64,000 nt of DNA from an uncultured delta proteobacterium. GTDB lineage: Bacteria > Desulfobacterota > WTBG01. Each line of letters opens with the position of its first letter. The stretch's first letter is position 1. A model generated the notes under the pieces. It had not been told where the DNA came from, did no database searches, and saw nothing but the letters and a program-made list of their open reading frames with translations. Below are positions 9,686 through 56,656 of this stretch, one piece after another. Both the position numbers and the translations under genes were made by a program. Where the stretch lies: NCBI GenBank assembly GCA_963793865.1, contig CAWCBP010000014.1, positions 192,001 to 256,000 on the forward strand, in the 5' to 3' direction.

Positions 9686-10969
9686 CTATCCTTCGGTTGC
9701 GCGGGCGCTGCCGGTCTGTGTGCCGAGTGAACTGATAACCGCTTCAGCGGCACGGCGGCCTGAGACCATGGCCCACTGGATCGATGCTGCAGAGCCGTAT
9801 TCGCCGCAGACGAACAGACGGGGACGGATTTGAGCAGGTGCTGCGGCGGGATGTAAGACAGGCGGGATTTGTAGGGGTAATGCGTGAGGAATGCGGTAGA
9901 TGCGCAAATAATGCCAGCTGCTGACTTGCGGCCCGAACCATTCCTGCAACTGGGTCCTGACGCTCGTTTCCAGCTGCTGATCGTTCTGTCCGGGATTGCC
10001 TAAAACGCTTACACTGATAAGAGACCTGCCTCGTGGTGCATAGCCCGAAGCCACTCTGCTCGGTGAACAGAGACTGTTGATAGGTCCCCGTCCGTCGCCA
10101 TTAAGGATCAGGACGGGTTCTGACACCGGAGGTTCATCAGCACCGTAGTAGATGCAGCTTGCGCTGCGGGAGCCGGGAGTTGTTGCATCACCCAGAAGCC
10201 GGGCCGCTTCAGGTCCCTCGGTTGCCACAACCACCGCATGCGCCCTGATCTGTTCCCCGCCGGCGAGGGTCACACAATCATCCTGAATCGATGCGACTCG
10301 GGCCTCCGTGCGCACGCTTCCGGAGGGTAATCGTGCAGCAAGCTGCTTCGGAATGGCCTCCATTCCACCCGAAGGTAACGCCGTATCACCCATCGAAAAG
10401 AAGCGAAATCCGAATTCGAGCATCCGGCTGGAGACCCCGAGCGCCGGATCAAAGAAGACCCCTCCGATAAAAGGTCTGAAGAAGCGATCGATCATGCCTT
10501 CCGAAAAGCCGATGCTGCGCAGTGCCTGCATGGTCGTGGTTTCCGGTCGATGATAGAGATCATCAAGCGAACCGGCCAGGGCCTGTCGTCTGAGTTTCCC
10601 GATCCGGAGCTTGTCCGTGAAACTTCCTATGGGTGCGAAGATGCCGCGCAGGCCGTCCAGCGGGTGGCGCCAGGGATCTGCAAAACGGTAGAATCGATTC
10701 TTATAGCGGATCAAAGCGCCCGGATAGAAGCTGCAGAGATTGAGGGCATCATAGTCAAGCACATGTTGCGCCTCTGGATAGGCGGCCAACAGGACCTGGA
10801 ATCCATGGTCAAGTAAAAAACCATCCACCCTGTCGGTTTTAATCCTTCCACCTATCCGGTTGTCCGCCTCCAGCACCTGGAATGAAAGCCCGCCCTGATG
10901 CAATCGAAGTGCGCAGCACAAACCCGACAGCCCTCCGCCGATAATCAGAACATCAGCCCCGGATGCCAT
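9686..10969 (-). CDS. FAD-dependent oxidoreductase (amine oxidase / protoporphyrinogen oxidase-like family)
   Basis: IIGGGLSGL..A, EA..RIGGRI.TD..DGFLLDHGFQ, C-terminal SIQWAMVSGRRAA. Confidence 0.85.
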   Translation of the reverse strand: MASGADVLIIGGGLSGLCCALRLHQGGLSFQVLEADNRIGGRIKTDRVDGFLLDHGFQVLLAAYPEAQHVLDYDALNLCSFYPGALIRYKNRFYRFADPWRHPLDGLRGIFAPIGSFTDKLRIGKLRRQALAGSLDDLYHRPETTTMQALRSIGFSEGMIDRFFRPFIGGVFFDPALGVSSRMLEFGFRFFSMGDTALPSGGMEAIPKQLAARLPSGSVRTEARVASIQDDCVTLAGGEQIRAHAVVVATEGPEAARLLGDATTPGSRSASCIYYGADEPPVSEPVLILNGDGRGPINSLCSPSRVASGYAPRGRSLISVSVLGNPGQNDQQLETSVRTQLQEWFGPQVSSWHYLRIYRIPHALPLQIPPVLHPAAAPAQIRPRLFVCGEYGSAASIQWAMVSGRRAAEAVISSLGTQTGSARATEG

Positions 10970-11143
10970 TTCCTGTATCCTCCAATGCGAAAGCCGCATT
11001 TATTGGGATTGCCAAAATCAAATGAACCATGTAAAAATAGTATCCGAGCCGTTGGCGGGGTGTCAAGATGAAAAGAACGGTTCAGAGGAACCGATCTTTT
11101 CAAGTGCCGACACTTTTCTCAATCATGTATGGGGATGACGCGG

Positions 11144-11596
11144 ATGAAAAAAACAGCGCAGTTGAGGGCATTTCTCAAGGACCTTTTCGCTTCCCAGCGA
11201 CTGGCGGTCCTGGCCACGCAGAACAATGGGGCGCCCTACGGGAACCTCATCGCCTTTATGGCCACCGACGACCTGAAGCATATTCTCTTTGCCACGACCC
11301 GGGCCACCCGGAAGTATGACTATATGGCAAGCAATCCCCGGATTGCCCTGGTGGTGGACAACCGGTCCAACCGGGAAGCCGATTTCCATCAGGCCGCCGC
11401 GGTGACCGTCACGGGAGTCGTATCGGATGTGGAAGGAGCGGAACGGGAGCGGTTCCAAAAGCTGTATCTTGCAAAACATCCTTATCTCAAGGATTTTGTC
11501 TCCTCCCCCACCTGCGCGCTGTTGAAGGTTGATGTGGAAACCTACTACGTGGTGAGCCGGTTTCAAAATGTGGTGGAACTGCAGATACACCGATGA
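11144..11596 (+). CDS. Pyridoxamine 5'-phosphate oxidase-family (split-barrel) protein
   Basis: LAVLAT..GAPY..LIAF, FATTRATRK, NPRIALVVDNR. Confidence 0.85.
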   Translation: MKKTAQLRAFLKDLFASQRLAVLATQNNGAPYGNLIAFMATDDLKHILFATTRATRKYDYMASNPRIALVVDNRSNREADFHQAAAVTVTGVVSDVEGAERERFQKLYLAKHPYLKDFVSSPTCALLKVDVETYYVVSRFQNVVELQIHR

Positions 11597-16364: not shown

Positions 16365-18319
16365 CTACTGTTCAATCTCCCTGACCGCGTTAAACCCTCC
16401 CCATACGGCATCCATAATTGTGCCCGGTTCCCTGCAGTCACCGATGCTCATAACCTTTGGGTCGTCGGCAAACGACCTGCTGAGTTCGTTTTGTGAAAAC
16501 AGGCGACCGGCAAAAACGAGGCTGTCCATCGGTATCCTCTTCTCCGCGCCCAGCTGATCCGCCACCACTCCGTCACCGTCCAGCCGTAAAGGGATCGTGC
16601 CGCGCAACACGGTGATGTTTTTTTCTTCCCGCAGCATCCTGAGAAGCATTTCGCGATTGTGGATATCCATGATATTGGTATCAAGTTCAGCGGAATCCTC
16701 CCGCGCACAGAGCGTAACCAGCTTACCCCGTCTGGCCAGATAAAGGGCGGTTTCACACCCGGTGACCCCGGCGCCCATGATCAGGATTCTTTCTCCGTCG
16801 GGCTCCTTGCCGGACAAAACCTGAATGGTTGTCAGCACGTTACCTTCCTCAATGGGGGAGGGCTCCATGCCTGCGCCGGTGGCGAGGATGACGTAATCGG
16901 CGGCGAAGCTGCTTATAGCTTCGACGGTTGCCCGCCTGTTCAGCACAACATCAATGGCTAAACGGCCCGCAAGCTCCCTCAGGTAACTGAGATAATCAGC
17001 ATATATCCCGTTTGAAATCAGGCCTTGAGGCGGGCCACAAATTACCCCCCAATCGGTCAGACGACTTCCCACAGGGTAACCGCAAAGCCCCGCTGCACGC
17101 CCACCCGCGCTGCTTCAACGCCGGCCGGGCCGCCTCCGACCACGAGGAGGGTGCGCTTTTGTTTGAGCGGGATCAGCGGCCTATCGGTTTCATGTCCGCA
17201 GACCGGGTTGAGCGCGCAGCTGGTCGGCTCTCCGGCGATCATCTGCCACAGGCAACCCTCATGGCAGCCAATGCAGGGCATCATCTCCGCAGTTCTGCCG
17301 CGTTGCACCTTATTGACCCATTCCGGCTCCGCCAGCAGGCCTCTGCCGATGGCAATAAAGTCGGCTTTTCCCTCGGAGAGCGCCCGCTCAGCCACCTCCG
17401 GGTATTGCAAACGACCGACGGATATGACCGGCAGACTGCAAACCTTTTTGACCTTCGCAGCCAGATCCACCATGCAGCCCGGCGGCTGATACTGGGGGGG
17501 ATGGGGCCACCAGCCGGTTTCGTAACAGCCCGCGTCAACATGCAAAGCGTCAACCCCCATTTTCTCCAGCTCTGCCGCAATCCACAATCCTTCTTCCTCC
17601 TCCCGGCCGCCTTCGAGATGATGCTTTATTCCAAAGCGGTAGATGATGGGAAAATCAGCGCCGGCATCGCGCTTGATGGCCTGAATCGCTTCCCGGGCAA
17701 AGGTAAGCCGCTTTTCCCGCGACCCGCCATAGCGGTCATCGCGCCGGTTCCAGAGGCCGGTCATAAACTGGTCAAGCAGATAGCCCTCGTGGCCGTGCAG
17801 TTCAACGCAGTCGGCTCCCGCCTCGCGGCAACGCATGGCAGCGTAGCCAAAAGCCGCGGACAATGCCGCTGCTTCTTCAGTGGTGAGCGCCCGGCTGTTC
17901 AAATCAGCATAATCAGGCACATAAAAGTTGGTGTTCTCCGAAGCGGAAACCGGTTTCACGCCGTCGGGCACGACAAAAGGCGGGACAACCCGGCCAAATC
18001 CGGCGGTGAGCTGCATGCTCAGCCGGCAATCATGGGCATGAAGCCGATCCGCCAGCTTGCGCACGGCCGCGACATGCGTATCATTTGCCATGCTGAGCAG
18101 TCCTTCTGAACAGGGTTCCAGCGCCCGTGAAACGAATACCATCTCGGTGGTAATCATGCCGACACCGCCTGCGGCGCGGGTGCCGTAGTAAGCCCGTACC
18201 CGCTCACCCCAGTATTCCTCTGAGCCGGCATCACATGTCCCGCGGATGCCCATGGCCGCCATGATAATGCGGTTTTTAATGGTAAGCTTACCGATATGTC
18301 CCGGTTCCAAAAGTTTCAT
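16365..18319 (-). CDS. NADH:flavin oxidoreductase (OYE / enoate reductase-type, FeS-FAD), broken by two +1 frameshifts near 17063 and 17003
   Basis: ELHGHEGYLLDQF, CIGCHEGC...CALNP, VVGGGPAG. Removing two bases restores WE.SDRLGGNLWPA..PDFKRDI.DY as in the intact paralogue at 26197. Confidence 0.85.
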
Positions 18320-18674: not shown

Positions 18675-20423
18675 TCAATATTCCATCAGGAGCTCGGTTA
18701 CGGGTATTGATAACTCCAATAGCTTTCTCGCGGGATATTTGATCCAGGTGTTGCGGTCAAAAAATGCGACTACCCTTTGACCGTTGTTGTAATACAGGTT
18801 AATGAGTTTTTCCCCGGCAGCGCTTTTTGCCAGTACCGTATCGCGAAATTGGTGTAATGTGACGATACCTTTATTATCTGCACCCAAAAGTAAAGATGCC
18901 GGACAGGCATTATCTTTGAACTGATCAAGAAAATCCAGGGTGCTATTAACAATTATCCGCTGCTGTTTTTCCCTGGAAATATCAGCCGGGTTGTCACCAT
19001 CCTGAACATAATTCTCATTGACGCCATCCCAGTAGTAACCACACTGGGTATGGTTTCCTCCCTCGATCTCCACAAACGGCGTGCCTTCAGGAAGATACTC
19101 TGCTCCGGCCCTGATCTCATCCGGGTGACCATCATTGGTGCCGTAAATGGAGATTGCTTTAAGGTCCGTGCCGTCCAGGCGGCAATTCCCCGGCGGCCAG
19201 GCAGCCCAGAGCACCACTCCGTCAATGCTCTCCAGATGGCCATAGGCATAACAGGCGGCGAAAGAGCCGCCGATAGAATGCCCGCCGATTATCCATGTTT
19301 TGATGTCGCTGTAATCACTGATGACCTGTCTGCCCTGATCGGCGCTGAGCACGGCAAGGTCACCCACCATCTTTACAATCACCACCAAGTAACCTTGTGC
19401 CGCAATGGCGCGGGCGGGGGGCGCGTATGCCCGCGGGTCAACCAGCCCTCCCGGATAAAAGATAAACCCTATAGTCGGGTTGGCATGTTTTGGCTTAAAG
19501 GCAAAATAAAAGTTTGACCCTTCTTCCCACTCCGCCACTTCCACCGTCGACACATCCACACGCAAATCCGATTCCATGGCCTCCAACGCTTCAGGCATTG
19601 GCGGGTGAGTTTCTCCCAGTTGCGTATTAAACTGCGTCAGAAAATCCGAGGTAACCTTTACAATTATTTCCTGCTGCTCTTCAATGGTGATGGTCGCGGC
19701 ATTGTCCAGTTCCAGATAAGCATTGGGGGAGGGGTCAATCCATCCGAACTGGGTGTGATTTCCGCCTTCAATTTCCACAAAGACCGTGTCCGCGGGCAGA
19801 ACAACAGCGTTTTCCATTACCTGTTCAGGTGTTGCCCTGCCGTCCAGAGAGCCGTAAACCGAAAGGACCTTGAGCGCCGTCTCATTCAACTTGCTCGATG
19901 GATCTGCAAACGATGCCCATATGACTACACCGCTGATGGTATCAGATTGTACGGCATAATTGCCGGCTGCCGTGCCTCCGACTGAATGTCCGCCTATGAC
20001 CCATGTTTCAATGTTTCCATAGTCCTCGATGATTTTATCCGCTCTGGTATACCCGAACATTGCAATGCAGGAAGGCATGGGGATAATGCAGGTAAAAAAT
20101 CCCTTTGCGGCAATGGCATGGGCAGCGGGAGCGTAGGACCGGGGATCGCAGTTGCCGCCCGGAAGTATTATGAAGCCGACCGTCGGCGGTGTTTTCTTAG
20201 GCATGAAGGCATAATAGATGTTGTCATCTTCCGGGGCCGGAGTCGCGCCGTCCCAGCTTTCCACCTCTACGACTGAGACCGCTACCGTAGCGCTTGAAGT
20301 CAGGGCATCCAGGGCCTCCGGCAGGGGCGGGCGCAGACATTCAATGGCGTTTGCAACATGAAAGCCGAGCAGCACCATTAAAATAGATATTGATGCAATA
20401 ATCAGTTTATGGGTTTTTTTCAT
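18675..20423 (-). CDS. Secreted tandem alpha/beta hydrolase with a C-terminal CFI-box-CTERM-like domain
   Basis: Two GGHSxGG nucleophile motifs and two IEGGNHTQ motifs; C-terminal CPA..L...FRD.VL..S..G..LI.LYY. Confidence 0.8.
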   Translation of the reverse strand: MKKTHKLIIASISILMVLLGFHVANAIECLRPPLPEALDALTSSATVAVSVVEVESWDGATPAPEDDNIYYAFMPKKTPPTVGFIILPGGNCDPRSYAPAAHAIAAKGFFTCIIPMPSCIAMFGYTRADKIIEDYGNIETWVIGGHSVGGTAAGNYAVQSDTISGVVIWASFADPSSKLNETALKVLSVYGSLDGRATPEQVMENAVVLPADTVFVEIEGGNHTQFGWIDPSPNAYLELDNAATITIEEQQEIIVKVTSDFLTQFNTQLGETHPPMPEALEAMESDLRVDVSTVEVAEWEEGSNFYFAFKPKHANPTIGFIFYPGGLVDPRAYAPPARAIAAQGYLVVIVKMVGDLAVLSADQGRQVISDYSDIKTWIIGGHSIGGSFAACYAYGHLESIDGVVLWAAWPPGNCRLDGTDLKAISIYGTNDGHPDEIRAGAEYLPEGTPFVEIEGGNHTQCGYYWDGVNENYVQDGDNPADISREKQQRIIVNSTLDFLDQFKDNACPASLLLGADNKGIVTLHQFRDTVLAKSAAGEKLINLYYNNGQRVVAFFDRNTWIKYPARKLLELSIPVTELLMEY

Positions 20424-20464
20424 GCAATGTTCTCCTGGGTTTATTTCAGTCGTGCCGCAGCCGT

Positions 20465-21619
20465 TTATTGACCCAATTCCTCCGGGTAGAATAACACAAA
20501 ACCGCCGCATCGTGTCTCCGGATCTTCGTTGTAAATATTCAGGATAAACTCATTGGTCTCCTTGCAATGGACAACGCAGATGCCGGTCAGGCCCTGGTAG
20601 CCCGGTATGTAATCGGCAATTTCGTCGCTCCGTGCGCTGCACGGCGAGTCGCTGTAGGTTTCGTTCATGTAGGCAGCGTTTGTTTCGCATTTGTCCTTCG
20701 CGTTCTCCGGGGTGAAGCCTGATCCGGTAAAATCAGCGCAGAAATAATTCTGTCCGTATAATTCTGAATAGAACAGGCAGCTGCCGTTTCCCGAGTCCAG
20801 TGAAGAGGGCCGGTCACAAACAGGTTTGCTGGGAGTTATTAAAACCGGATTTTCTTCAAAACTCTTTTCGAGCATCCAGCTCAGTATTGCCTGGTGGCTT
20901 AACAATTTGCAATATCTGACTCCCCGCAGATTTTCATCGGAAATATCCGGGTCATCGAGCGTTACATACAGGCTCCATGGTTCATAATAGAAGTGGTTTC
21001 CTTCCCGGGTTACTTTGGTGGCCGGATCAACATCAAGCCACGACGTTCCCATATGCACCGGGTTGGTCGTATCATCAAGCGGCGGCAGGTCATCGTCGGG
21101 GATGAAGGATAATTGTTTCCCCTGGGAAGGTAGCTGTCCCGCTCATCCTGTGATAAAACGTCATTGAGCACGGTGTCATAGACTGTCCTGCTGCACATCC
21201 GCGCAGATACCCTGCGGCTCATTGTTGCTGAATCCAAAGGCATCATCGACGCTGTCCTTGGATTTGAATTTAGCCAGTATCACACCATTGATGCTTGACG
21301 GTGCGTCCGGGTAAGTGCTCATGTCTTCCGGGACTATGGTATAAAAGGGCTGTATCCAGTTTTCCGCAGCATTCAGCGCCGCGTAGGATCCGCTGAATTC
21401 CAGCAGCGGCAGGTTGGTGGCCCTGATATCGATATCCTCTGACTCAGTGCGGGTCATGGTCTTCTGGGCATTCCAGACCAGGCAATCATCATATGCCCCG
21501 GCCAGCTCATACCCTGTTTTGCCGGTGTCGACATCACAGGTATAGGTCGGCGGTCTCTTGCACTGGCTATTCAGTGCCATGAGAAGGAGAATCTGCATTC
21601 CTATCAATACATACCTCAT
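20465..21619 (-). CDS. Cys-rich exported protein/lipoprotein of unknown function, split by about two frameshifts (near 21185 and 21110)
   Basis: N-terminal signal ending ALNSQC; three consecutive ORF pieces in different frames read as one protein. Confidence 0.55.
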
Positions 21620-21915: not shown

Positions 21916-24402
21916 TCAAGGAGCTGTGACCACAAACCCTTCCCAGATTACTTCTCCGGTTTCACTCTGGGAATCCGTGACCACACACCGAATGGCATAG
22001 GTGCCCGCATCCCCGCTTCCGGTGTTCCACTGCCAGCTGGCGCTGTTTCCACCCACCGCGGTCCAGCCGGGATCAGATGCTTTCTTGATGGACCACTGAT
22101 AGGCGTAGGCGGGCTTGCCTCCGGTTACGTGTGAACTAAAGGTTACACTCCCTCCCGCCACAATAGATTCGGTTTCCCCGTTGGTAAGGTATACCAGGGG
22201 TTTCACGATGGCATTGAGCACATGGGAGGCGAGCATCTGGCCTACCCGGGGATCATCATTGGGTGGAATGTAAATCTCCCATGTTCCCGTATATTGATCC
22301 TGCACCGGGCCATTTGGATCCGGAGGGTCGCCGGCGGGATCATAACCCAAATGTCCGTATGCACTCATGTCAAAGCATAGCGATGGGTCCAGATCGCTCA
22401 TGCCCTGATTGATGGGCGTCTGCCGCACCGGCGGATACGGCATCAATGGATCACCGCATCCTCCCATCTCAAAGCAGCACTCAGGTTTTGAGGTCTGAGT
22501 TTCAACACCGTTGGTCAGGGCATTGCCGGCCGGGCTTCGGTTATCACGTATTATTTCATTGTCGCTGAACGTGCCGGAGAGCTGTTTTAGGGTAAGGGTG
22601 CCGGATGCTGTGTTCCCCTCTATCCATTTTATGACCGCTGTTGCATGGGATGACTGACCGGTTAGCGTTGCCCCCGCATGAAAAACTGCTGTACCGGTAT
22701 CGTAATTCAGTTTCCACTCCCCACAGTCGGTATCAACCCAGATACCCCAGTAATCGGCAAAGGGGTGACCCACGGTGGGATACCTGACGTAATCACCAGT
22801 ACCCCACTTGGCCCAGTTCTTATACCCGATCTCTCTGCCGGCAATCTGGTTATATATCTCAACCATGTTAAGGGCAGTATCGGTTACCACTTGGGGAAAC
22901 CCGATTGCGATATGCTGAACGCCCCGATCCTTAAGATATTCCAGGGCATCCCAGTAGCGATAGCCCCACTCTTCACCGGGCAGCACCTTATCAGTCTGGT
23001 AAAGCCAGGCGTGTCCATAGGATTCACCGCGCATATCCCGGTTTCGTTCCTCCAGCCCGTTTTCAGGATTCACCATCTGGATACCCCCATAGGCTCCGAT
23101 AATATTGTCCGGGTCCATGGTAGAATGACGGCTGAGTAGCTCTGCCTTCACATTCTTATTGATAATCTGGGTATCATTCACCTTCGGATCAAACCACTCG
23201 TTATAATCGTGGAGGGCATGATTGAAGAGGATGACGCCCGTATCGGCAACAGAAACGGTGCTTGAGAAAGCACCCTCAATGGCTTCCACATTGAGGTCAG
23301 TCACCACCGGATCCGTTACAATGGGGTTGGGACTGCCGTTGAGCAGCACGTGGCTGTCCACAGTCGGATCCTTGAGAACACGGGTCCATCCCGCAGGTTC
23401 TGTAGGATAGGAACGCTCCATCAGGTTGCTGTAATCATTTACCCAGAGCAAAGGGATGGAGATGCCGTATTTGGTTTTCCAGGCATCAAGGGTGCGCTTG
23501 GTCATCTCCACCACGTCGTAGGATTTGGAGAAGCGCGGCCCCCCCACCGTCCAGTCAACCATGATGATCCGGTAGGCGCCCTTTTTCAGCAATCGCTCCG
23601 CCGGGCCGTCTACGTTGTACCGATCCGGATTACAACCGTCCCAGGGCCCGCCTGTTGCACCTTCGCCGCAGTAGGTGCAGTCGGGATAGGCCCCTGCCGG
23701 GTCAGCCAACCCGTCGGGTCCATAGTAAATGAACCGCGGGTAGGCATAATGATCCACACGGTCAGCGGCCATGTAACCCGCCCAATCCACCTCGAAGTTG
23801 AGACCATAAGTATTTGCGTCGAGCGCAGCCTTCATATCCAGCAGCTGCTGGTCAGAAAGAGAGTGAAAGGGATCAGTTCCGCCAATCCGTTCGTACTCGA
23901 ACTCATACATCCTGATAAACCTGGCCGCAAACTCCCCAAATGAGGGATCCAGCACCAGGGGCCATAAGGGTGGGTTCCAGATGACAAGCTTGTACACCGA
24001 GTGGTTCGGATCATATGAAAACTGGTGCACCGAGGCATCCCACATGTATTGTGGTTGGTAGGTGTCCATGCCGCCATGGATTACAAAGATGACACCAACG
24101 GGCCGGGTGCACGCAGGGCATGGGTTGCTCAGTGAGGTTCTGCCGAAGTCTGATTTGAACACCGCCGCATCAGTGCCATCGGCATCGCTATCCCCGTCAA
24201 AATTTCCATAACAGGGATTATCGTAGGTACAGGGATTGTTATTATAAGTGCTTCTGCCGAAATGCTTCTTGAAAACTGCCGCGTCGGTTCCATCCTGGTC
24301 CAGGTCGCAGTCGAAATTTCCCTGGCACTGATCCTGTGCCATTACTGGAGTCACTGCGAATAGTAACAACCCCGCAAGCACTAATAATAGTTTCATCATC
24401 AT
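21916..24402 (-). CDS. Secreted protein: N-terminal dockerin-like module, ferrochelatase (class II chelatase)-like core, C-terminal Ig/PKD-like domain
   Basis: Signal peptide; VGVIFVIHG; YERIGGTDPFHSLSDQQLLDMKAAL (cf. HemH YxxIGGxSPLxxxTxxQxxxL); GVILFNHAL; DALEYLKDRGVQHIAIGFPQVVTD. Confidence 0.65.
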   Translation of the reverse strand: MMMKLLLVLAGLLLFAVTPVMAQDQCQGNFDCDLDQDGTDAAVFKKHFGRSTYNNNPCTYDNPCYGNFDGDSDADGTDAAVFKSDFGRTSLSNPCPACTRPVGVIFVIHGGMDTYQPQYMWDASVHQFSYDPNHSVYKLVIWNPPLWPLVLDPSFGEFAARFIRMYEFEYERIGGTDPFHSLSDQQLLDMKAALDANTYGLNFEVDWAGYMAADRVDHYAYPRFIYYGPDGLADPAGAYPDCTYCGEGATGGPWDGCNPDRYNVDGPAERLLKKGAYRIIMVDWTVGGPRFSKSYDVVEMTKRTLDAWKTKYGISIPLLWVNDYSNLMERSYPTEPAGWTRVLKDPTVDSHVLLNGSPNPIVTDPVVTDLNVEAIEGAFSSTVSVADTGVILFNHALHDYNEWFDPKVNDTQIINKNVKAELLSRHSTMDPDNIIGAYGGIQMVNPENGLEERNRDMRGESYGHAWLYQTDKVLPGEEWGYRYWDALEYLKDRGVQHIAIGFPQVVTDTALNMVEIYNQIAGREIGYKNWAKWGTGDYVRYPTVGHPFADYWGIWVDTDCGEWKLNYDTGTAVFHAGATLTGQSSHATAVIKWIEGNTASGTLTLKQLSGTFSDNEIIRDNRSPAGNALTNGVETQTSKPECCFEMGGCGDPLMPYPPVRQTPINQGMSDLDPSLCFDMSAYGHLGYDPAGDPPDPNGPVQDQYTGTWEIYIPPNDDPRVGQMLASHVLNAIVKPLVYLTNGETESIVAGGSVTFSSHVTGGKPAYAYQWSIKKASDPGWTAVGGNSASWQWNTGSGDAGTYAIRCVVTDSQSETGEVIWEGFVVTAP

Positions 24403-24470
24403 GGTTCCCCCCTGTTTGTAAAAATTTGTCTCGAATTAAAAAGATGCACGCACTGCCGGCACCTCGTAAA

Positions 24471-25133
24471 TCAGGGCTTCAATTTTTTCTTGAGGTTGCT
24501 TGAAAGCTCTTCATCCTTAATTATTTTTCCTGTAAGCAATAAGATTTTTGCAATTTTCTCTTTAGAAATATTGAATTCAGACAGCGCCATGTTGATTATC
24601 AACGAATAAATATCTACAGGACTTACCGGTATTTGTTCATTAATCGCAGCCATCATGAGTGCTTTGGTAGCTCCATGAATGGCCACAATTTTGGAATGAA
24701 TCTCCTTATCAGAAAAATGAAGGTTTAAATCGTTTAATAATTTCTTCATTTTGTTGACTTTGATGTTAATCACTGCATGGTCAACGGATGCAGTTTGAGA
24801 GATGGCCTTGTAAAGATTTAACAGGTGTTTATCCTTTAAAATCTCACATGTTGCCAATGCCACATCCAATGCATATCGCAACAATGGCTCCTGGCATTCC
24901 ACGGCAATCCTGTCGGTGAGACGGCTGATGTCCACAAGGGCATCGTGCAAGCCGGAGAGAAGGATCTCCTCCTTGTTCTTAAAAAAGTGATAAAGGGTTC
25001 CCGTTGACAATCCGGACTTTTGCAAGATCTGCCGGACAGACGTTGCATCATATCCCTGCTCAAGGAAGAGCCGACGGGAAATCCTTATTATTCTTCGTTT
25101 CGTCACTAAAGCATTAGCTTCCCTGATGTTCAT
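24471..25133 (-). CDS. TetR/AcrR family transcriptional regulator
   Basis: LFLEQGYDATSVRQI....GLSTGTLYHFFKNKEEIL helix-turn-helix. Confidence 0.95.
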   Translation of the reverse strand: MNIREANALVTKRRIIRISRRLFLEQGYDATSVRQILQKSGLSTGTLYHFFKNKEEILLSGLHDALVDISRLTDRIAVECQEPLLRYALDVALATCEILKDKHLLNLYKAISQTASVDHAVINIKVNKMKKLLNDLNLHFSDKEIHSKIVAIHGATKALMMAAINEQIPVSPVDIYSLIINMALSEFNISKEKIAKILLLTGKIIKDEELSSNLKKKLKP

Positions 25134-25185
25134 GCGCCCTATACCTTTTTGCGGATTGATTGTGGGGTCCTGAGCCGCAATGAAT

Positions 25186-25266
25186 TAGAACATGTTTTTT
25201 TTCTCTTGACAAGCAAAAAATAGGCATGATACAGGTAGAACATGTTCTAATTTAGAAGGATGTTTT
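25186..25266. promoter_or_regulatory. Divergent promoter with probable TetR operators
   Basis: Perfect palindrome TAGAACATGTTCTA at 25236-25249, degenerate copy TAGAACATGTTTTT at 25186-25199, TTGACA at 25206. Confidence 0.75.
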
Positions 25267-25350
25267 TACCACGCTGCCGGGATTTTTAGCGACACGTGAT
25301 CTTGACAGCAGATGACCATCCGGACACAGGCAATTTACAGGAGGAAAAAC

Positions 25351-26059
25351 ATGAAGACAATTCTCTTATACTCAGCGGATAATCGAGGCGCTTGCCCCGC
25401 TCAATCCACAGCCCATGACGACATATCAGGGAGAGGACGTCACCCGGTTTGAAAATATTGAAACCGATATGATGATCCACACCATGCGCTGCTTTGAAGC
25501 GGACAAGCTGGATAAAATCGTCACTATTAAAGCGGATGTGATGGGCGGCAAGATCATCGTGTGGGGCACTACCATTGTTCCATCTGATGAGTACCCGCTG
25601 CCCATGTTTACGTCAGAGATTGTTCAGGCAGTGAATCATCTCAGCCTGCGGGTAGATCTTATTCCCTTGGCTGATTGCGGACGCGATATGGCGTATCTTG
25701 AAAAATATATGGCCCCCATGGAGCCTGTCTGGGAGAAATACAAAGACATTGAGGGAATGGGAACTGAGCGATACCTCTGGCACCGGGTGATGCTCTCCCC
25801 GTTTTATACCTATGGGAAGATTAAGTATGACGTTAAAAATATTGAGGAACTATCTCTGGACATTACCACTGAATACTTGAAACTGTACACCCGATTCTGG
25901 TCCGAAGCGGAAAAGGCCGACCCCTCCTACCTGGAAGCATTGAATGGAAGGAAAAGGGACATGCTTAAAATCATGCTGGAGAACGATCCCGGTGAAGGAC
26001 CGCTTAAGAAGGCTTTGGGTAAGGAAAACGCGGAAAAGCTGCTTGCACTCCTTTTTTAG
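25351..26059 (+). CDS. Ferredoxin-dependent bilin reductase / RCCR-like protein; real start probably 25351 with a frameshift near 25365
   Basis: PSDEYPLPMF, VDLIPLADC...YLEKY, MLSPF, EYLKLY, ENDPGEGPLKKALG...LLF; RBS AGGAGG before ATG 25351. Confidence 0.7.
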
Positions 26060-26196
26060 AGGAACAGACACATTCATCGACATTTCCTCACGTTGCATGG
26101 AGGAACAGCCTTACGCCTGAGTTTATGGATAAGGTACAAGACAAGCGATCTTCCGAGAAATAACACCATACCTATGAAGGGAAAGGGTCGGTAACC

Positions 26197-28155
26197 ATGA
26201 AGCTTTTAGAACCCGGTTATATCGGTACACTCAAGGTTAAAAACCGTGTGGTTATGGCAGCAATGGGTGCCCATGGCCTGCATGAAGGTGACGCAGTCTG
26301 GGGGAAACGATATCGTGCCTACTATGGGGCACGGGCTGCCGGCGGGGTGGGCCTCATTACGACCGAGGCCACCTTTGCCACCCAGGAACTCGAACCGTTC
26401 TCCCGGGGACTGTTTAACGTGGCGTCAGACAAGCATCTGGATTCCATGCGACTGCTTGCCAATACCCTCCATTTCTATGGCTGTAAGCTTTCAATTCAGC
26501 TGACCGCCGGCTTCGGCCGAGTTGTTCCCCCGCCGGTGGTACCTGAAGGTGTGCTGCCTGTTTCGGCCTCGGTTAACACCCACTATTCACCGGTCATGCA
26601 TCTCGATCCGGACGCCATGACCAGGGAGATAACCACTGAGGAGGCATCAGCCCTTGCCCAGGCCTTCGGCTATGCCGCGATGCGCTGCCGCGAAGGCGGA
26701 GCAGACTGCGTCGAGCTGCATGGTCATGAGGGTTATTTACTGGACCAGTTTATGACCCCCCTCTGGAACCGGCGTGACGACCGCTATGGCGGCTCGCGTG
26801 AGAAAAGACTCAACCTGGCCCGGGAAGCGATAGCGGCCATTAAGCGTGATGCCGGTCAGGATTTTCCCGTTATCTACCGCTTTGGCATTACCCATCACCT
26901 CGAAGGCGGAAGAGACGAGGAAGAAGGTCTCTGGATTGCCCGGGAGCTGGAAAACATGGGGGTTGATGCGCTTCATGTCGATGCCGGCTGTTACGAGACA
27001 CACTGGTGGCCCCATCCTCCCCAGTATTTCCCGCCCGGCTGCATGGTGGATATCGCTGAAAAGGTTAAGAAGGTCACCTCGCTGCCGGTTATTGCCGTTG
27101 GCAGGCTCCATCATCCGGAAACAGCCGAAAGGGCACTGGCGGAAGGCAAGGCCGACTTTATTGCCATCGGCAGGGGACTGTTATCCGAGCCTGACTGGGT
27201 CAATAAAATTGCGGACGGGAAGACCGATGAGCTGATTCCCTGTTTAGGGTGTCACGAAGGGTGCAAGTGGCAGATGATTGTCGGACAGCCGACAAGTTGT
27301 GCCATAAATCCTTCCTGCGGCCATGAAATCGAGTGGGCACTTACCCCTCTTGCCGAGAAAAGGTCTCTTCTGGTGGTCGGCGGCGGTCCGGCCGGGATTG
27401 AGGCGGCACGGGTTGGCGCAGCGCGCGGGTTTGATGTTACGCTCTGGGAAGCTTCAGACCGGCTGGGCGGAAATCTCTGGCCTGCGGCACAACCGGATTT
27501 CAAGCGTGATATTTCTGATTACATACACTACCTCTCAGGACTTGTGAAGCGGTTGCCGATCAATCTCGTTCTTAATAAAAAGGCGACTGCCGAAGATGTC
27601 CGAAACTGTGGCGCAGATTATGTCGTTCTTGCGACCGGGGCACAGATGGAGAAGCCGCCTTTTGATAATGGAGCAGGGGAGAAGGTGCTCACGGTGATCC
27701 AGGTGCTGAAAGGTTTGGAACCCCGGGGCGAGAGGGTGCTTATCATGGGGGGAGGGGTGATCGGCTGTGAGACGGCCCTCTACCTGGCACGCCGGGGTAA
27801 GCAGGTTACCATCAGCACCAGGCGGGATAAAAGTGCACTGGCGGAAGATCTCTACGATCACAATAATCACGATGTGCTGCTCATGATGATAAAAGCTGCT
27901 GACATCACGGTGCTTTCAGAGGCCGTCCCCGTAAGGGTGGAGAACGATGGTGTGGTAATCAACAAAGCCGGCGCCGAAACAAAAATCCCGGTTGACAGCC
28001 TTGTGTTTTCCGGTCGGATGATACCGGAAAATGGGCTTGGCAAATCTCTTGCGAACATGCATAATGTTTTCAGCGTTGGCGACTGCGTAAACCCGGAAAG
28101 AATTATGGAAGCTGTTTGGGCGGCTTTTAAGACGGTGAGAGAAATCGAACCGTAA
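26197..28155 (+). CDS. NADH:flavin oxidoreductase (OYE / enoate reductase-type with FeS and FAD domains)
   Basis: ELHGHEGYLLDQF, CLGCHEGC...CAINP, two GxGxxG motifs. Confidence 0.92.
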   Translation: MKLLEPGYIGTLKVKNRVVMAAMGAHGLHEGDAVWGKRYRAYYGARAAGGVGLITTEATFATQELEPFSRGLFNVASDKHLDSMRLLANTLHFYGCKLSIQLTAGFGRVVPPPVVPEGVLPVSASVNTHYSPVMHLDPDAMTREITTEEASALAQAFGYAAMRCREGGADCVELHGHEGYLLDQFMTPLWNRRDDRYGGSREKRLNLAREAIAAIKRDAGQDFPVIYRFGITHHLEGGRDEEEGLWIARELENMGVDALHVDAGCYETHWWPHPPQYFPPGCMVDIAEKVKKVTSLPVIAVGRLHHPETAERALAEGKADFIAIGRGLLSEPDWVNKIADGKTDELIPCLGCHEGCKWQMIVGQPTSCAINPSCGHEIEWALTPLAEKRSLLVVGGGPAGIEAARVGAARGFDVTLWEASDRLGGNLWPAAQPDFKRDISDYIHYLSGLVKRLPINLVLNKKATAEDVRNCGADYVVLATGAQMEKPPFDNGAGEKVLTVIQVLKGLEPRGERVLIMGGGVIGCETALYLARRGKQVTISTRRDKSALAEDLYDHNNHDVLLMMIKAADITVLSEAVPVRVENDGVVINKAGAETKIPVDSLVFSGRMIPENGLGKSLANMHNVFSVGDCVNPERIMEAVWAAFKTVREIEP

Positions 28156-28404
28156 AACAGGACCTTTATGCGCTCCCCTAAGATTGCCATGCTCGCACCC
28201 CTGTGGGTGTTGATGTTCCTCTGGCTTGCTCCGGCCGCATACACCATGCGGATGCAAGGAGTGCGTCCCTCCCTGTGATTCTTATCTACATGTAGAGGCA
28301 ACCAGCCGGTTGCTCCTACGAAGCAGATATTATTTTTGTGTTACCCCCCTGCCCCTGCGGGTCGCCACGAAGCATGAAAATATATAATTCCCCTCTCCCC
28401 GCGG

Positions 28405-28534
28405 GAGACTGTGTCATAATGGGTGAAATGCTTTGTTTGTCATTCTGAACGCAGTGAAGAATCTCATAGAATCAACTAATTAGAAAATGGAGATTCTTCG
28501 GCTTCGCCTCAGAATGACATTGTGACACAGGCTC
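28405..28534. mobile_element. 130-bp MITE with 16-bp terminal inverted repeats and GCGG target duplication, inserted in a REP hairpin
   Basis: GAGACTGTGTCATAAT / ATTGTGACACAGGCTC (14 of 16 match); gcgg directly flanks both ends. Confidence 0.8.
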
Positions 28535-28563
28535 GCGGTGGGAGAGGGTTAGGGTGAGGGGGT

Positions 28564-34483: not shown

Positions 34484-35947
34484 TTAGGGATACACGCACC
34501 ACGGATCCGTCGGACAGATGGGGCATGGGTTGCCGGTAATCTTGCTTCTGCCGAAATCTGTTTTGAACAGTGACGCATTAGTTCCGTCCACATCGGTATC
34601 ACACTCAAAGTCGCCATTGCAGGGAAGCGCGTTGGTACAGGGATTACCACTGATTTTACTTCTGCCAAAATCAGCTTTGAAAGTTGATGCATCGGTGCCG
34701 TCAACGTCTGTGTCACAGTCAAAATCCCCCTTGCACAGAGCAGAGCAGCCTTCCGATGGGCACAGCTTGAAAAGCTCTCCGCCGAGGTCAACGATATAAA
34801 GCTCCCCATTTCCATCTTCTCCGAATGATGCAATACTGTCTATTGTGATGCCGTTGCCGGGATTAAGCTCCGCTGTCCGGTCGGTAAATGAGGTCAGGTT
34901 AAACCCGTCGTAGCGAAAGGACCATATTTGACCACTGCAAAAATCGGCAAAGAAATAGGTGCCCTGAAGACCGGCGATGTCACTGCCCCGGTACACATAT
35001 CCCCCTGTCACGGAGCAGCGGAAGGGGGTTCCTCCATGGGTGTATTCATGGATGGGATAGGTGAGTCCGCCGGGATCGCAGTTGACCGGCGGATTGTAGC
35101 AATGGGCGCCTTCCAAAAGCCTCCAGCCGTAGTTTTCGCCGCCGGTGCTGAGCGTCGGTTGAAAGTCTATTTCCTCATAGGCACTCTGCCCAACGTCCGC
35201 AATGTACAGATCGCCGGTAAGCCTATCGAAACTGAACCGCCAAGGGTTCCTCAAACCCTTTGCCCAAATTTCATCAAGGGGATCCCCTGGTCCTATATAG
35301 GGATTGTCAGGCGGTATGGCGTAGGGCTGCGTGCTATCCACGTCGATCCTGAGCAATTTACCCAGGAGCTCACCGTCATTTTGTGCCCTGTTATCTGGAT
35401 CTCCTGCCGAACCACCGTCGCCCATGCCGATATAGAGGTATCCGTCATTAGGTCCGAAGGCCAGCATTCCGCCGTTGTGGTTTGCATAGGGCTGGGGTAT
35501 GGTCATGAGTATGAGAGCGCTGTCGAGATCGGCAACATCAGGATTCCCCGAGACCGAGTAACGCGCCACAACGGTGTTGCCGGCATTGTCGGTATAGTTT
35601 ACATAAAAATAGCCATTGACCTGGTAGTCGGGATGGAAGGCAAGCCCCAGGAGTCCCCGTTCGCTTCCGCTGTCGATGACCAGGCTGTTGATGTCGAGGA
35701 AAGGTGTCGCCAACGCCACACCTCCCTTTAAGATCTTTATTTGTGCCGTGTATTGTTCCAGCACGAAAAGCCGTATCGCATCGCCGGGGGGCGCAGTAAC
35801 GAAAACTGGACGTGTTAATCCGGAGGCAATCCTCTCTGTTTGAAGCGCAAGAGCGTTGCAGTAAAAGAAACATGTGAAGAAAAAGACAAGGAACATCGCA
35901 ATACACATAACCATTTTTCTAACCGGAGCTGTGCTTTTTATGTTCAT
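34484..35947 (-). CDS. Secreted PQQ-dependent sugar dehydrogenase-family protein with C-terminal dockerin-like module
   Basis: ERGLLGLAFHP, NHNGG, GDGG, GLRNPWRFSFD, SFGEDGNGELY. Confidence 0.9.
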   Translation of the reverse strand: MNIKSTAPVRKMVMCIAMFLVFFFTCFFYCNALALQTERIASGLTRPVFVTAPPGDAIRLFVLEQYTAQIKILKGGVALATPFLDINSLVIDSGSERGLLGLAFHPDYQVNGYFYVNYTDNAGNTVVARYSVSGNPDVADLDSALILMTIPQPYANHNGGMLAFGPNDGYLYIGMGDGGSAGDPDNRAQNDGELLGKLLRIDVDSTQPYAIPPDNPYIGPGDPLDEIWAKGLRNPWRFSFDRLTGDLYIADVGQSAYEEIDFQPTLSTGGENYGWRLLEGAHCYNPPVNCDPGGLTYPIHEYTHGGTPFRCSVTGGYVYRGSDIAGLQGTYFFADFCSGQIWSFRYDGFNLTSFTDRTAELNPGNGITIDSIASFGEDGNGELYIVDLGGELFKLCPSEGCSALCKGDFDCDTDVDGTDASTFKADFGRSKISGNPCTNALPCNGDFECDTDVDGTNASLFKTDFGRSKITGNPCPICPTDPWCVYP

Positions 35948-36390: not shown

Positions 36391-38193
36391 TTATGGTAAT
36401 GGATAACTACACCACGCTACCCCAGCTATACAAGCAGGACATGGTTTTTGCATTGAACTACGGCCGAAGTCGGATTTGAACAGGGCTGCATCAGAACCAT
36501 CCACATTGCCATTACAGGAAAAATCACCGTTGCATGGACTTTCATTATTACAGGGGTCTAATATTGTGCTTCTCCCGAAAGCTGCCTTGAATAAGGCTGC
36601 ATCGCTACCATCAACATCGCTGTCGGTATCGCAGTTAAAGTTACCCTCGCAATCGCAGGCGTCCCCTATGCCGTTTCCCTGTGGAGGAAATGTATCTTCC
36701 TGATTCATGCTGCAAATTCCATTAGCACCGCATGCCGCATCAGCAATGCAGGTGCTTCCTATCTTGCCAGAAGTGCAAGTGCCTAAGTACGGCCCATTTG
36801 GCATATTAGAACAGTTATCTCCATCAGCCAGGAATGAACTACTTTGTATACTGCCTGCCATTGTCCCACCAGGATTGGACTCGACTCCATCACCATCAAT
36901 GTCACTTGGGTCTTCGTAGTAACATGGAACCGAAGTGTTTATCACAATGTCTTGAGGTATAGTATCTGTATCAAAAATGGTGACTTCTTGGAAATCGGCA
37001 GTAAAATTAATATCCTGACTTGTAATGCCAGCATCGTGTTCAGTTGCATATGTAGTATTTATGATGCCACAATCAGGAATCTCTCCATTGCTGTCGAGTT
37101 TTAGTATCATTAAATCCCCAATGATAGTCCCAAAGGAAGATGTGTTGCCTGCTACGATGATTCCTCCATCCATGGTCTGCCCAAAGTAAACACCAAAATC
37201 ACCATTTGTCCCTCCATAGGATTTTTGCCATATAATATTTCCGCTACTGTTAACATGTAAGATAAAAACATCCCACCCATGTAACGATTTCGAACCAACT
37301 ACATTATAACCTCCATCCGAGGTTTGTTTAATACCAGAAGCTAGACTTGTTCCATATGGATAGCTCCTTTGCCAAATAATACCGCCATCAGCATCCAGTT
37401 TTAAAACCATCGCTGAATCATTAGTTACCCCAGCTACAATGTACCCTCCATCAGCAGTTTGCTGGATTGAAGAAGCACTACTGAAAGATTCGTTTCCATA
37501 GGACTTCTGCCAGATAATATTTCCATCATTATCCAGATTGAGGATACACACGCTGTAATTACTTGTAAGAGCAGCATGCACAGTTAAAATATAACCGCCA
37601 TCACTAGTTTGTACAACAGTATCGGCTCCTTCATAATAGGATAAATTAAATTGCTTAACCCATGTAATATTTCCAGCACTATTTAATTTAAGAATCTCTA
37701 CCACTTCTCCGCCATCGTTATTAAGATAGTCACCAGATGCGATATAGCCCCCATCCGTCGTTTGCTGTATAGACGTGAACTGAACCACTCCATTATAAGC
37801 TTTCTGCCAGCTTATATCACCATTGCCATCAAGCTTTAATATCCAGCCTTTGACAGAGCTTGTTAGGTCAGTCCAACCTGCTAGGACATATCCCCCATCC
37901 GTAGTTTGCTGTATTGATGTAGCAAAATTTGAATTGCCATAGCGATAGGTTTTCTTCCATGAAACATTTCCATTCGTATCAATCTTCAGTACGAGAAGGT
38001 CGATTAACCATCCATCAAACGATTTAGTATACCCAGCAGCAATATATCCTCCATCCATTGTTTGCTGAATACAATACATAACATCTTCATTACTCCCCCC
38101 ATATGTTTTAATCCATTGCTGTGAAACAGGGCTGGCATAAGAAGGAGTAGTCAGAGCCATCAATAATGCAATGATTATAAGTGACTTCTTCAT
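36391..38193 (-). CDS. Secreted beta-propeller repeat protein with dockerin-like C-terminus; paralogue of 7027-9165
   Basis: Same repeats and linker (DIDGDGVESNPGG...FPPQGNGIGDACDCEG). Confidence 0.88.
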   Translation of the reverse strand: MKKSLIIIALLMALTTPSYASPVSQQWIKTYGGSNEDVMYCIQQTMDGGYIAAGYTKSFDGWLIDLLVLKIDTNGNVSWKKTYRYGNSNFATSIQQTTDGGYVLAGWTDLTSSVKGWILKLDGNGDISWQKAYNGVVQFTSIQQTTDGGYIASGDYLNNDGGEVVEILKLNSAGNITWVKQFNLSYYEGADTVVQTSDGGYILTVHAALTSNYSVCILNLDNDGNIIWQKSYGNESFSSASSIQQTADGGYIVAGVTNDSAMVLKLDADGGIIWQRSYPYGTSLASGIKQTSDGGYNVVGSKSLHGWDVFILHVNSSGNIIWQKSYGGTNGDFGVYFGQTMDGGIIVAGNTSSFGTIIGDLMILKLDSNGEIPDCGIINTTYATEHDAGITSQDINFTADFQEVTIFDTDTIPQDIVINTSVPCYYEDPSDIDGDGVESNPGGTMAGSIQSSSFLADGDNCSNMPNGPYLGTCTSGKIGSTCIADAACGANGICSMNQEDTFPPQGNGIGDACDCEGNFNCDTDSDVDGSDAALFKAAFGRSTILDPCNNESPCNGDFSCNGNVDGSDAALFKSDFGRSSMQKPCPACIAGVAWCSYPLP

Positions 38194-47890: not shown

Positions 47891-47967
47891 GCGCGCAGTA
47901 ATGTGCGATGCATTCGCGGCGTAAGGCCGCTCCTACCGTCAATTAACCTGTCCGGCGGGGAAAACAT

Positions 47968-50962: not shown

Positions 50963-51085
50963 ATTCGTGCGCGTAGAACCGGTAGGAGCGGCTTTCAGCC
51001 GCGAATGCATCGCGCATGAATGCGCTCCTACAGAAATTTTACATATCTTTGGCAAACGTTTCAGCGAACCCAGGGAGAGGGGCCA

Positions 51086-51556: not shown

Positions 51557-51596
51557 GACCGGCAAAAATCCATAATCATCGAGGATAGCATACGCC

Positions 51597-52277: not shown

Positions 52278-52287
52278 ATAACCATGC

Positions 52288-54222: not shown

Positions 54223-54242
54223 TTGGATAACGGGTTCATTCT

Positions 54243-55202: not shown

Positions 55203-55232
55203 CATGCATCAATAACCGGAAGGGAGGGTGGT

Positions 55233-56649: not shown

Positions 56650-56656
56650 GTAAGCG

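Follow-up and report, generated by a model that had tools for sequence, protein, structure and literature searches.

Gene content of the divergon

The window, i.e., the whole stretch of 64,000 nt analysed here, covers G000:C14:192001-256000 in the genome of an uncultured delta proteobacterium, a sediment bacterium of the sulfate-reducer type (G000; 3.85 Mb in 14 contigs, 98.6% complete). We studied a divergent gene cluster (divergon) within it, in which the genes of a TetR-family repressor and a chelatase-like protein face two reductase genes, one resembling ferredoxin-dependent bilin reductases (FDBRs) and one from the family of old yellow enzymes (OYEs). Its features are:

21916-24402, minus strand: predicted exported ferrochelatase-fold protein, 828 aa (open reading frame (ORF) listing and structure model)
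24471-25133, minus strand: TetR-family repressor, 220 aa (PF00440, 55.1 bits at a cut-off of 24, E 6.6e-15)
25186-25199, no strand: degenerate operator copy TAGAACATGTTTTT (motif scan)
25207-25212, plus strand: TTGACA box, which reads TTGTCA on the minus strand and has an operator copy on either side
25236-25249, no strand: perfect 14-bp palindrome TAGAACATGTTCTA, predicted TetR operator
25351-26059, plus strand: FDBR-like reductase gene; the listed 214-aa ORF is 25415-26059 (PF05996, 67.4 bits at a cut-off of 31, E 1.9e-18)
26197-28155, plus strand: FadH/OYE-type Fe-S flavoenzyme, 652 aa (PF00724, 204.7 bits, and PF07992, 93.7 bits)

An earlier note on this DNA had described tetR and the chelatase-like gene as running leftward and the FDBR-like and OYE genes as running rightward; the ORF listing and Pfam agree with this layout. 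The spacer between tetR and the listed FDBR-like ORF comprises 281 bp (25133 to 25415) and holds the TTGACA box with the palindrome and its degenerate copy on either side, just as the note had reported. A terminator search 3' of the OYE gene found none.

The TetR repressor and its predicted operator

Judged within the window alone, the palindrome is not demonstrably beyond chance: a motif scan with up to 3 mismatches gives 2 matches where 1.47 are expected, a number also attained in 43 of 100 shuffled sequences. The genome-wide scan that the earlier note had suggested was run as well. It finds a single exact copy of the 14-mer in G000 (0.009 expected from base composition). Allowing up to 1 mismatch gives a total of 3 sites over the 3.85 Mb, each of which lies beside this tetR gene or its paralogue. 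The two further sites, TAGAACACGTTCTA at C1:209298 and AAGAACATGTTCTA at C1:209346, are 48 bp apart and lie immediately upstream of the sole close paralogue that this tetR has in the genome (52% identity, C1:209413-210072). The paralogue locus repeats the layout seen here (operator, T-run, TTGTCA, operator), and the operator pairs at both TetR loci are about 50 bp apart around TTGACA/TTGTCA.

The spacer of the sister genome G003, whose TetR orthologue is 78% identical, conserves both operator copies as well as the TTGACA box. In the G002 spacer, the degenerate copy is conserved and TAGAACGCGTTCTA is found, which carries a two-base change (CATG to CGCG) and is still a perfect palindrome. The motif is absent from G006, where there is no comparable spacer. 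Read by eye on the minus strand, the sequence TTGTCA-N17-TCTAAT forms a candidate leftward promoter whose -10 element overlaps the degenerate copy; this arrangement of promoter and operator recurs, again by eye, at the TetR paralogue. A consensus promoter scan lists no site at the TTGACA box, which for TTGTCA-N17-TCTAAT is due to the -10 rule of the scan. Given these observations, the palindrome is well supported as the predicted operator of this TetR subfamily.

For the repressor, all NCBIfam equivalogs score far below their cut-offs, and solved TetR structures align to this protein almost only over the N-terminal helix-turn-helix (HTH)/DNA-binding region. The ligand domain resembles none that has been characterised, and ligand-inducibility is presumed from family membership only. 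In its divergent genes, its paired operators flanking or overlapping promoter elements and its likely (here predicted) autoregulation, the locus is similar to the TetR/tetA and QacR/qacA divergons. It differs from them in a ligand domain that is unrelated to characterised members and in an operator that is specific to a small subfamily. At the paralogue locus (L024, G000:C1:203000-217000), TetR and its operator pair face FAD_binding_4 flavoproteins and a subunit of an electron transfer flavoprotein (ETF), and an ABC-2 exporter with a TetR of its own follows downstream.

The exported ferrochelatase-fold protein

The predicted domain order of the 828-aa protein is a signal peptide, two dockerin-like repeats (residues ~25-98), a chelatase-fold core (~100-736) with large insertions (~330 residues), and a PKD/Ig-like domain (~735-828). 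Pfam and NCBIfam assign it to 0 families (PF00762 included), phmmer against the PDB returns an Ig-like match only, and a search of the ESM Atlas gives no usable match. Genome-wide, PF00762 has no match above its cut-off in G000.

The fold assignment comes from an AlphaFold2 model based on 35 sequences (pLDDT 81.8, pTM 0.80). Its top Foldseek match is the coproporphyrin ferrochelatase 9f0f (E 2.1e-8). When aligned with VIA-align, model residues 100-736 match CpfC (8aw7) with Z 24.7 at 2.8 Å root mean square deviation (rmsd; 304/309 residues aligned), while human and yeast ferrochelatases reach Z 21-23 and P. gingivalis FetB (9b86) Z 14.9. PKD domains match residues ~735-828 (Z ~10.8). The term "chelatase-like" used in the earlier note is therefore right at the level of the fold.

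At the sequence level, a PDB profile search reaches B. subtilis ferrochelatase at one place, the motif YERIGGTDPF (YxxIGGxSP; E 0.18), and hhalign against seven ferrochelatases from the phylum covers 277 columns (E 3.6e-4) at a probability of 37%. In that 37% alignment, His395, which is invariant in 35/35 sequences, falls on the SAH His of ferrochelatases. Homologues are numerous (625 matches), but the best 120 of the 625 are unnamed or called "hypothetical protein", and none of these 120 has a Pfam domain over the core. The N-termini of most homologues resemble signal peptides or lipoboxes, and the family has six invariant Cys. From the model, we regard the 828-aa product as a probable extracytoplasmic protein of ferrochelatase fold that stands outside the Pfam family and apparently keeps only part of the catalytic set.

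Extracytoplasmic class II chelatases that bind metalloporphyrins include the periplasmic CbiK of D. vulgaris and FetB of P. gingivalis, as stated in the excerpts of PMC13065792 considered here. The present protein is like these two in being an exported chelatase-fold protein of an anaerobe. Unlike them, its core is nearer to HemH/CpfC (Z 24.7) and comes with insertions, dockerin-like repeats, a PKD domain and no Pfam match; furthermore, the HxE Glu position is apparently not kept (hhalign, 37% probability). The dockerin-like repeat module (~25-98) has about 100 tblastn matches throughout G000, including ~5487-5717, 7399-7632, 34514-34804 and 36418-36651 of the window, i.e., it is common to a large secretome.

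The FDBR-like reductase

The gene of the FDBR-like protein is longer than its listed ORF. Its true start is the ATG at 25351, behind GGAGGA; three orthologues start 63 nt upstream of the listed ORF, behind GGAGG. Compared with these orthologues, one extra base is found at ~25364 (after codon 4) and the frame of ATG 25351 closes after 33 codons. Because of this 1-nt insertion, the listed ORF begins at the internal ATG 25415. One metagenome contig, X4, is without the extra base at 25364; this is a single related contig of depth 4.5 with 16 differences in 469 nt, and no near-identical contig covers the position. Among 104 related clusters, most, including nearly all near-full-length matches, have 235 aa.

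We used an orthologue for structure modelling (pLDDT 95.3). Its fold matches span residues 1-235, such that the 21 residues missing from the listed ORF belong to the fold. The best agreement is with the bilin reductase GtPEBB (6qx6_B; Z 26.6, rmsd 2.0, 225 aligned residues), followed by PcyA (Z 26.3), HY2 (26.2), red chlorophyll catabolite reductase (RCCR; 23.6) and coproporphyrinogen oxidases (12.7-18.5). Except for two chains of the Ycf2/Orf2971-FtsHi motor complex, all listed entries with Z>12 are tetrapyrrole enzymes, namely bilin reductases, RCCR or coproporphyrinogen oxidases.

The motifs VDLIPL and NDPGEG align with the Asp-bearing motifs of GtPEBB and HY2. At least 90% of 32 orthologues and paralogues have D102, and all of them have D212; we take these two positions to be the catalytic Asp residues of FDBRs. 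For PcyA, PMC10151467 names Asp105. None of the NCBIfam FDBR equivalogs (PebA, PebB, PcyA) is reached, the best score being 46.9 bits at a cut-off of 327, and RCC_reductase (PF06405) has no match to this protein at E<=0.001. Without a PF06405 match, FDBR-like is the better name than RCCR-like. Of the double label "FDBR/RCCR-like" in the earlier note, we accordingly keep the first half and drop the second.

With PebB, HY2 and PcyA the protein shares the full fold (Z 26.6 to 26.2), a PF05996 score above cut-off and both Asp motifs. Unlike them, it remains far below all NCBIfam equivalogs, it is one of 13 FDBR-like paralogues, and no haem oxygenase was found in its genome (see below). RCCR has the same fold, yet its structural score (Z 23.6) is below that of the FDBRs. 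The pre-PcyA clusters (pre-1, pre-2, pre-3) of heterotrophic bacteria contain haem oxygenase (HO), Fe-S, a V4R pair and globin, or else a B12-binding protein with globin, according to PMC10151467. Compared by gene context, the present locus differs, i.e., none of these partner genes is among the Pfam matches of the neighbours. FDBR variants able to bind porphyrins are described in excerpts of PMC13446030. A literature search for bilin reductases in Desulfobacterota/Thermodesulfobacteriota, sulfate-reducing or anaerobilin contexts found the term, among the papers listed, in a general tetrapyrrole review only, and among the works found on PF05996, FDBR-like or RCCR-like proteins only the pre-PcyA study concerns bacteria.

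FDBR-like sequences are widespread, with 13 matches in G000 and presence in 31/41 related genomes. The genes of G000 adjoin those for aldehyde:ferredoxin oxidoreductase (AFOR), PNPOx-like, SDR, FAD_binding_4, radical-SAM and methyltransferase proteins. Two loci on contig C1 show further variants. At L014:7142-8143, a 2x Fer4 ferredoxin is fused to an FDBR-like domain, which also passes the RCC_reductase cut-off of Pfam (30.6 vs. 24.9 bits). At L013:5216-10786, an FDBR-like paralogue (79%) comes after AFOR genes; close by are a PNPOx-like gene and one for a Coprogen_oxidas-like protein of 262 aa, which is a relative in the FDBR fold. In the sister genome G003, an additional FDBR-like gene (30% identical) is located between OYE and amidohydrolase (L025:14022-14648); the corresponding window interval, 28156-28563, is only 0.4 kb long.

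The FadH/OYE-type reductase

The second rightward gene encodes an FMN TIM barrel, a four-Cys cluster motif and an FAD/NAD(P)H domain (PF00724 and PF07992). The nearest solved relatives are 2-naphthoyl-CoA reductase (NCR, 6qkg; 274.7 bits) and the 2,4-dienoyl-CoA reductase FadH of E. coli (1ps9; 256.5 bits). CLGCHEGC...C of the present protein aligns with CIGCNQAC...C, and GHEGY with GSEGY, which places the Tyr on Tyr166 of FadH. By sequence, we consider it a complete FadH-type enzyme with FMN, 4Fe-4S and FAD/NAD(P)H sites and a predicted Tyr proton donor. It is like FadH and NCR in the retained four-Cys motif and Tyr; unlike for these enzymes, there are no CoA-activating genes nearby and the gene is linked to an FDBR-like one.

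NCBIfam models the bilirubin reductase BilR in a long form (NF045599) and as an N domain (NF045592). The OYE scores 382.4 bits with bili_reduct_long (cut-off 750), 378 with BaiCD (825) and 374 with mycofactocin OYE_2 (793), as well as 197.3 with bili_reduct_N (425). The hallmark of BilR is HGDR, whose Arg167 replaces Tyr166 of FadH (excerpts of PMC10769871), and that of BilV is an AHAH loop (PMC13252198, section 5; 10.64898/2026.06.10.731317, section 9). The corresponding loop reads ELHGHEGYLLDQF here, i.e., HGHEGY, so the earlier note was right that HGDR is absent. With HGHEGY in place of HGDR and scores of about half the cut-offs, the enzyme is not a BilR; HGHEGY in place of AHAH at the aligned loop likewise speaks against BilV.

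Still, the enzyme is made up of the same three domains (TIM barrel, Fe-S, FAD/NAD(P)H) as the long BilR/BilV of gut Firmicutes and falls into the same superfamily. BilR proteins contain PF00724 by itself or PF00724 and PF07992, and the domain content found here agrees with the latter. In the cited sections, BilR and BilV are two OYE-family enzymes that split the C=C bonds of one bilin between them (PMC13252198, section 5; 10.64898/2026.06.10.731317, sections 7 and 9), and a single pigment worked on by two reductases would suit the present locus as well. Beyond the loop and the NCBIfam scores, the systems differ in the host, which is a non-gut anaerobe here, and in the gene partners, which are TetR, FDBR-like and chelatase-fold proteins in this case and MarR (bilQ) and flavodoxin (bilS) in the known bil operons (as far as covered by the excerpts of PMC10769871).

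Conservation of gene linkage among relatives

To judge synteny, we considered eight loci of FDBR orthologues with enough flanking sequence, which come from six genera and four families of the class. All of them (8/8) have chelatase-like sequence no more than 4 kb from the FDBR orthologue, and in 5/8 it is directly upstream on the same strand. One of the eight chelatase-like sequences is a 114-aa remnant; in one locus tetR is located in between, in another one a penicillin-amidase gene. The OYE orthologue is found on the same contig within 12.5 kb of the FDBR orthologue in 7/8 genomes.

Starting from the OYE, 26/41 related genomes contain a match at E<=1e-100. An FDBR-like gene is located within 2.5 kb in at least 10/26 and within 13 kb in at least 15/26 of them, often from another FDBR paralogue group. 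These counts are lower bounds, since 132 further FDBR matches lie outside those listed and many contigs are short.

Three loci (L047, L050, L048) show an operon of regulator, MMPL, DUF1302, DUF1329, YCF48/BNR propeller, chelatase-like, FDBR-like, a ~150-aa protein and PNPOx_N; further downstream, L047 has OYE and MFS genes, and L050 has an MFS gene. Compared against the PDB, the PNPOx-like proteins match only Rv2991 and general stress protein 26 (E ~1e-3), which says little about their role. Genes for alpha/beta-hydrolases are recurrent at the loci of relatives. In another Thermodesulfobacteriota metagenome-assembled genome (MAG), an 880-aa protein with weak matches to Chlorophyllase (31.3 bits) and PETase-like (30.7 bits) families is encoded directly after the chelatase-like gene and the OYE orthologue (L056:6021-8663).

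In summary, the linkage of chelatase-like, FDBR-like and OYE genes is conserved across four families, and in most cases an RND/DUF1302/DUF1329 transporter and a PNPOx-like gene belong to the set. Given this conserved synteny of three enzyme genes, a shared regulated pathway with two C=C reductases can fairly be inferred. The earlier note had proposed a second, ligand-inducible module for sequential bilin reduction. A regulated module with two reductases gains from the three-gene synteny; a specific tie to bilirubin or BilR is not supported, given the absent HGDR and AHAH loops and the scores below cut-off.

The leftward gene string and its frame breaks

The divergon reaches further left than first described, namely down to a broken second OYE copy. 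The additional genes are:

16365-18319, minus strand: second FadH/OYE-type reductase copy, ~71% identical to the first, in three frames (tblastn and Pfam)
18675-20510, minus strand: predicted exported tandem alpha/beta-hydrolase with two Abhydrolase_5 domains (PF12695, 274.5 bits, 2 stretches)
20465-21058, minus strand: h197, Cys-rich hypothetical protein, 197 aa (no Pfam/NCBIfam match)
21176-21619, minus strand: h147, hypothetical protein, 147 aa, hydrophobic N-terminus by eye (no family match)

Reading leftward, the order is tetR, a 68-bp gap, the chelatase-fold gene, a 296-bp gap, h147, h197, the tandem hydrolase, a 355-bp gap and OYE copy 2. The same order is retained in the sister genome G003, where h147 is 84% identical; h197 (67%) is conserved in G003 only. 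Neither h147 nor h197 shows similarity to the small ORF and the PNPOx-like gene downstream of FDBR in L047. The tandem hydrolase has a signal-peptide-like stretch, MKKTHKLIIASISILMVLLGFHVANA, from an internal Met (by eye), and its homologues adjoin OYE in L025, L030 and L056.

OYE copy 2 is covered by tblastn in three pieces (residues 1-425, 418-439 and 440-651), with PF00724 at 17057-18319 and PF07992 at 16365-17072. Its match is interrupted by two TGA and one TAA; the counterpart in G003 is unbroken (L025:1460-3406). An AFOR gene elsewhere in the genome (L013:8937-10786) is likewise split between frames. Since the FDBR gene, OYE copy 2 and this AFOR are all frame-broken in a genome of 14 contigs, we suspect that the breaks stem from indel errors of the assembly.

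The leftward string also bears on whether the genes have anything in common. They might be neighbours without a common pathway, with the 828-aa protein being one of about 100 exported dockerin-tagged proteins and TetR controlling itself and one reductase. The abundance of the dockerin-like module (~100 tblastn matches), flanks rich in unrelated exported hydrolases (amidohydrolase, M14 peptidase) and the interruption of the string by gaps of 296 and 355 bp would agree with that. But chelatase-like and FDBR-like genes are adjacent in four families with varying gene orders, and OYE is repeatedly found beside FDBR-like genes of different paralogue groups; we thus deem a chance neighbourhood very unlikely.

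Interpretation

The reading we prefer, at a probability that we would put only a little short of even, is that the TetR-repressed divergon takes in and reduces a tetrapyrrole-type pigment in this anaerobic Thermodesulfobacteriota host. Folds and synteny are taken from the present analysis and the operator is the predicted one; substrate, direction and step order are what we infer. The two operator copies flank a predicted shared -35 box, with tetR and the exported genes on its leftward side and both cytoplasmic reductase genes on its rightward side. The exported chelatase-fold protein might bind, and perhaps demetallate, an external porphyrin-like pigment, the side groups of which could be trimmed by the hydrolases. 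Uptake of the pigment would follow, with envelope transport via the RND/DUF1302/DUF1329/BNR system in relatives. In the cytoplasm, ferredoxin would supply the FDBR-like enzyme with electrons and NAD(P)H the OYE, and each of the two enzymes may reduce different C=C bonds. Finally, the pigment or its product would free TetR from the DNA.

PF01126 haem oxygenase gives 0 matches in G000 at 98.6% completeness (other haem-opening enzymes were not searched for); a control search with the same family has matches in 3/14 known genomes. With regard to habitat, the window DNA is partly present in freshwater, sediment and soil metagenomes: four runs (freshwater, sediment, freshwater-sediment and soil) contain pieces that are 90-100% alike, and the relatives are lake and sediment MAGs. 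None of the listed runs carrying window DNA is an RNA dataset. As no haem oxygenase was found and the DNA occurs in freshwater, sediment and soil, a role of the cluster in gut bilirubin turnover is unlikely.

We hold it to be distinctly unlikely that the cluster is a bilin (biliverdin/bilirubin type) module after the manner of gut BilR/BilV, with a linear tetrapyrrole being reduced step by step by OYE and the FDBR-like enzyme. It would explain the FDBR fold with its Asp pair and the OYE architecture, which is that of long BilR/BilV with bili_reduct_long as the nominally top NCBIfam match, and BilR/BilV indicate that such a division of labour exists (cited sections of PMC13252198 and 10.64898/2026.06.10.731317). 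On the other hand, HGDR and AHAH are both replaced by HGHEGY, the scores (382 vs. 750 and 197 vs. 425 bits) are level with those of BaiCD and mycofactocin OYE, and, beside the missing PF01126 match and the environmental occurrence, the MarR and flavodoxin partners of known bil operons differ from those found here (excerpts of PMC10769871).

The main rival to tetrapyrrole reduction is a hydrophobic, conjugated substrate of another kind, such as an aryl-/dienoyl-CoA, a polyene or a terpenoid. In that case, a ferredoxin-dependent ene-reductase would have been repurposed in the FDBR-like protein, and the chelatase-fold protein would bind the compound, or a metal, in the envelope. Several observations are in line with this: the CoA-ester relatives of the OYE (NCR, FadH); an MMPL/DUF1302/DUF1329/BNR system that appears, among the papers listed by a search, in work on fatty acid/alcohol and monoterpene metabolism; the 13 FDBR-like paralogues, which have AFOR, SDR, FAD_binding_4 and O-methyltransferase genes as neighbours; the TetR paralogue that faces FAD_binding_4 and ETF genes with the same operator; and the proteobacterial chelatase-fold members that adjoin CN_hydrolase, MFS, UbiD and SDR genes. 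Against it, two folds of the gene set (ferrochelatase and FDBR/RCCR/HemF) have known members that bind tetrapyrroles, both Asp positions are kept in the FDBR-like protein, and a Pfam scan of the neighbours shows neither CoA ligase nor thioesterase in the divergon. The third fold, the PNPOx-like split barrel, is linked to haem and biliverdin. On balance, we rate a non-tetrapyrrole substrate as rather unlikely.

A number of points nevertheless weigh against the uptake and reduction of a tetrapyrrole-type pigment. As no PF01126 protein was found, the genome is without a known route to linear tetrapyrroles. In the hhalign alignment (37% probability), the HxE Glu position is taken by a near-invariant Leu511, with Asp508 and Glu515 nearby; different compartments contain the exported protein and the reductases; and the nearest solved relatives of the OYE work on CoA thioesters. 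The FDBR gene and OYE copy 2 are both frame-broken in this assembly, and a 13-copy FDBR-like family with varied neighbours need not act on tetrapyrroles alone. Regarding context, 78 chelatase-fold loci, six of which are the same contigs as in the FDBR-orthologue synteny set, contain an FDBR orthologue in 6 cases, a distant FDBR-like gene in 5, OYE in 4 and TetR in 1, so the majority of this family is encoded away from FDBR-like genes. TetR control is seen in this genus only, the loci of other relatives carrying LuxR, PadR or two-component regulators, and proteobacterial chelatase-fold members are found in varied contexts with no tetrapyrrole signal. Furthermore, the genomes are kin, so the synteny counts overstate independence.

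If the tetrapyrrole reading is taken one step further, uncultured Thermodesulfobacteriota of anoxic sediments might scavenge buried haem- or chlorophyll-derived pigments without oxygen. The chelatase-fold protein would work in reverse or as a receptor, import would be of RND type, and an enlarged family of FDBR-like enzymes, together with their FadH-type partners, would saturate vinyl and bridge bonds of cyclic or anaerobically opened tetrapyrroles. We consider this extended scenario possible but doubtful. If true, FDBRs would be catabolic enzymes in organisms without haem oxygenase. The anaerobic turnover of haem, chlorophyll and their breakdown products is largely unexplained, and to our knowledge all known bilin reductases act downstream of an oxygen-dependent ring opening.

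Independent of this, the divergon offers a compact testable set, i.e., a repressor with a defined (predicted) operator, an exported protein of chelatase fold and a pair of reductases that differ in their cofactor logic, and the gene set recurs through a class of sediment bacteria. Given a tetrapyrrole substrate, FDBR biology would extend from the pigment synthesis of phototrophs to pigment processing in anaerobes, and a function could be given to a chelatase-fold family that is named "hypothetical" only (among the 120 of 625 homologues listed). Given another substrate, other chemistry would have recruited the FDBR and ferrochelatase folds, a finding of interest in its own right.

Further genes of the window

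About 10 kb left of the cluster, an Amino_oxidase flavoprotein gene (9686-10999, minus strand) is divergent from that of a PNPOx_N protein (11129-11596, plus strand); in relatives, PNPOx_N genes come directly after the FDBR orthologue. On the right, a second tetrapyrrole-flavoured cluster extends over 47174-62561 (plus strand). It comprises DUF169, two nitrogenase-like Oxidored_nitro genes, the second of which has a PCP_red tail as in protochlorophyllide reductase, MarR and a P-type ATPase, as well as a 2x[4Fe-4S] ferredoxin, a B12-binding radical SAM enzyme, SAM synthetase and SAH hydrolase. Two further FDBR-like genes are located in this cluster, at 55233-56069 and 57310-58089.

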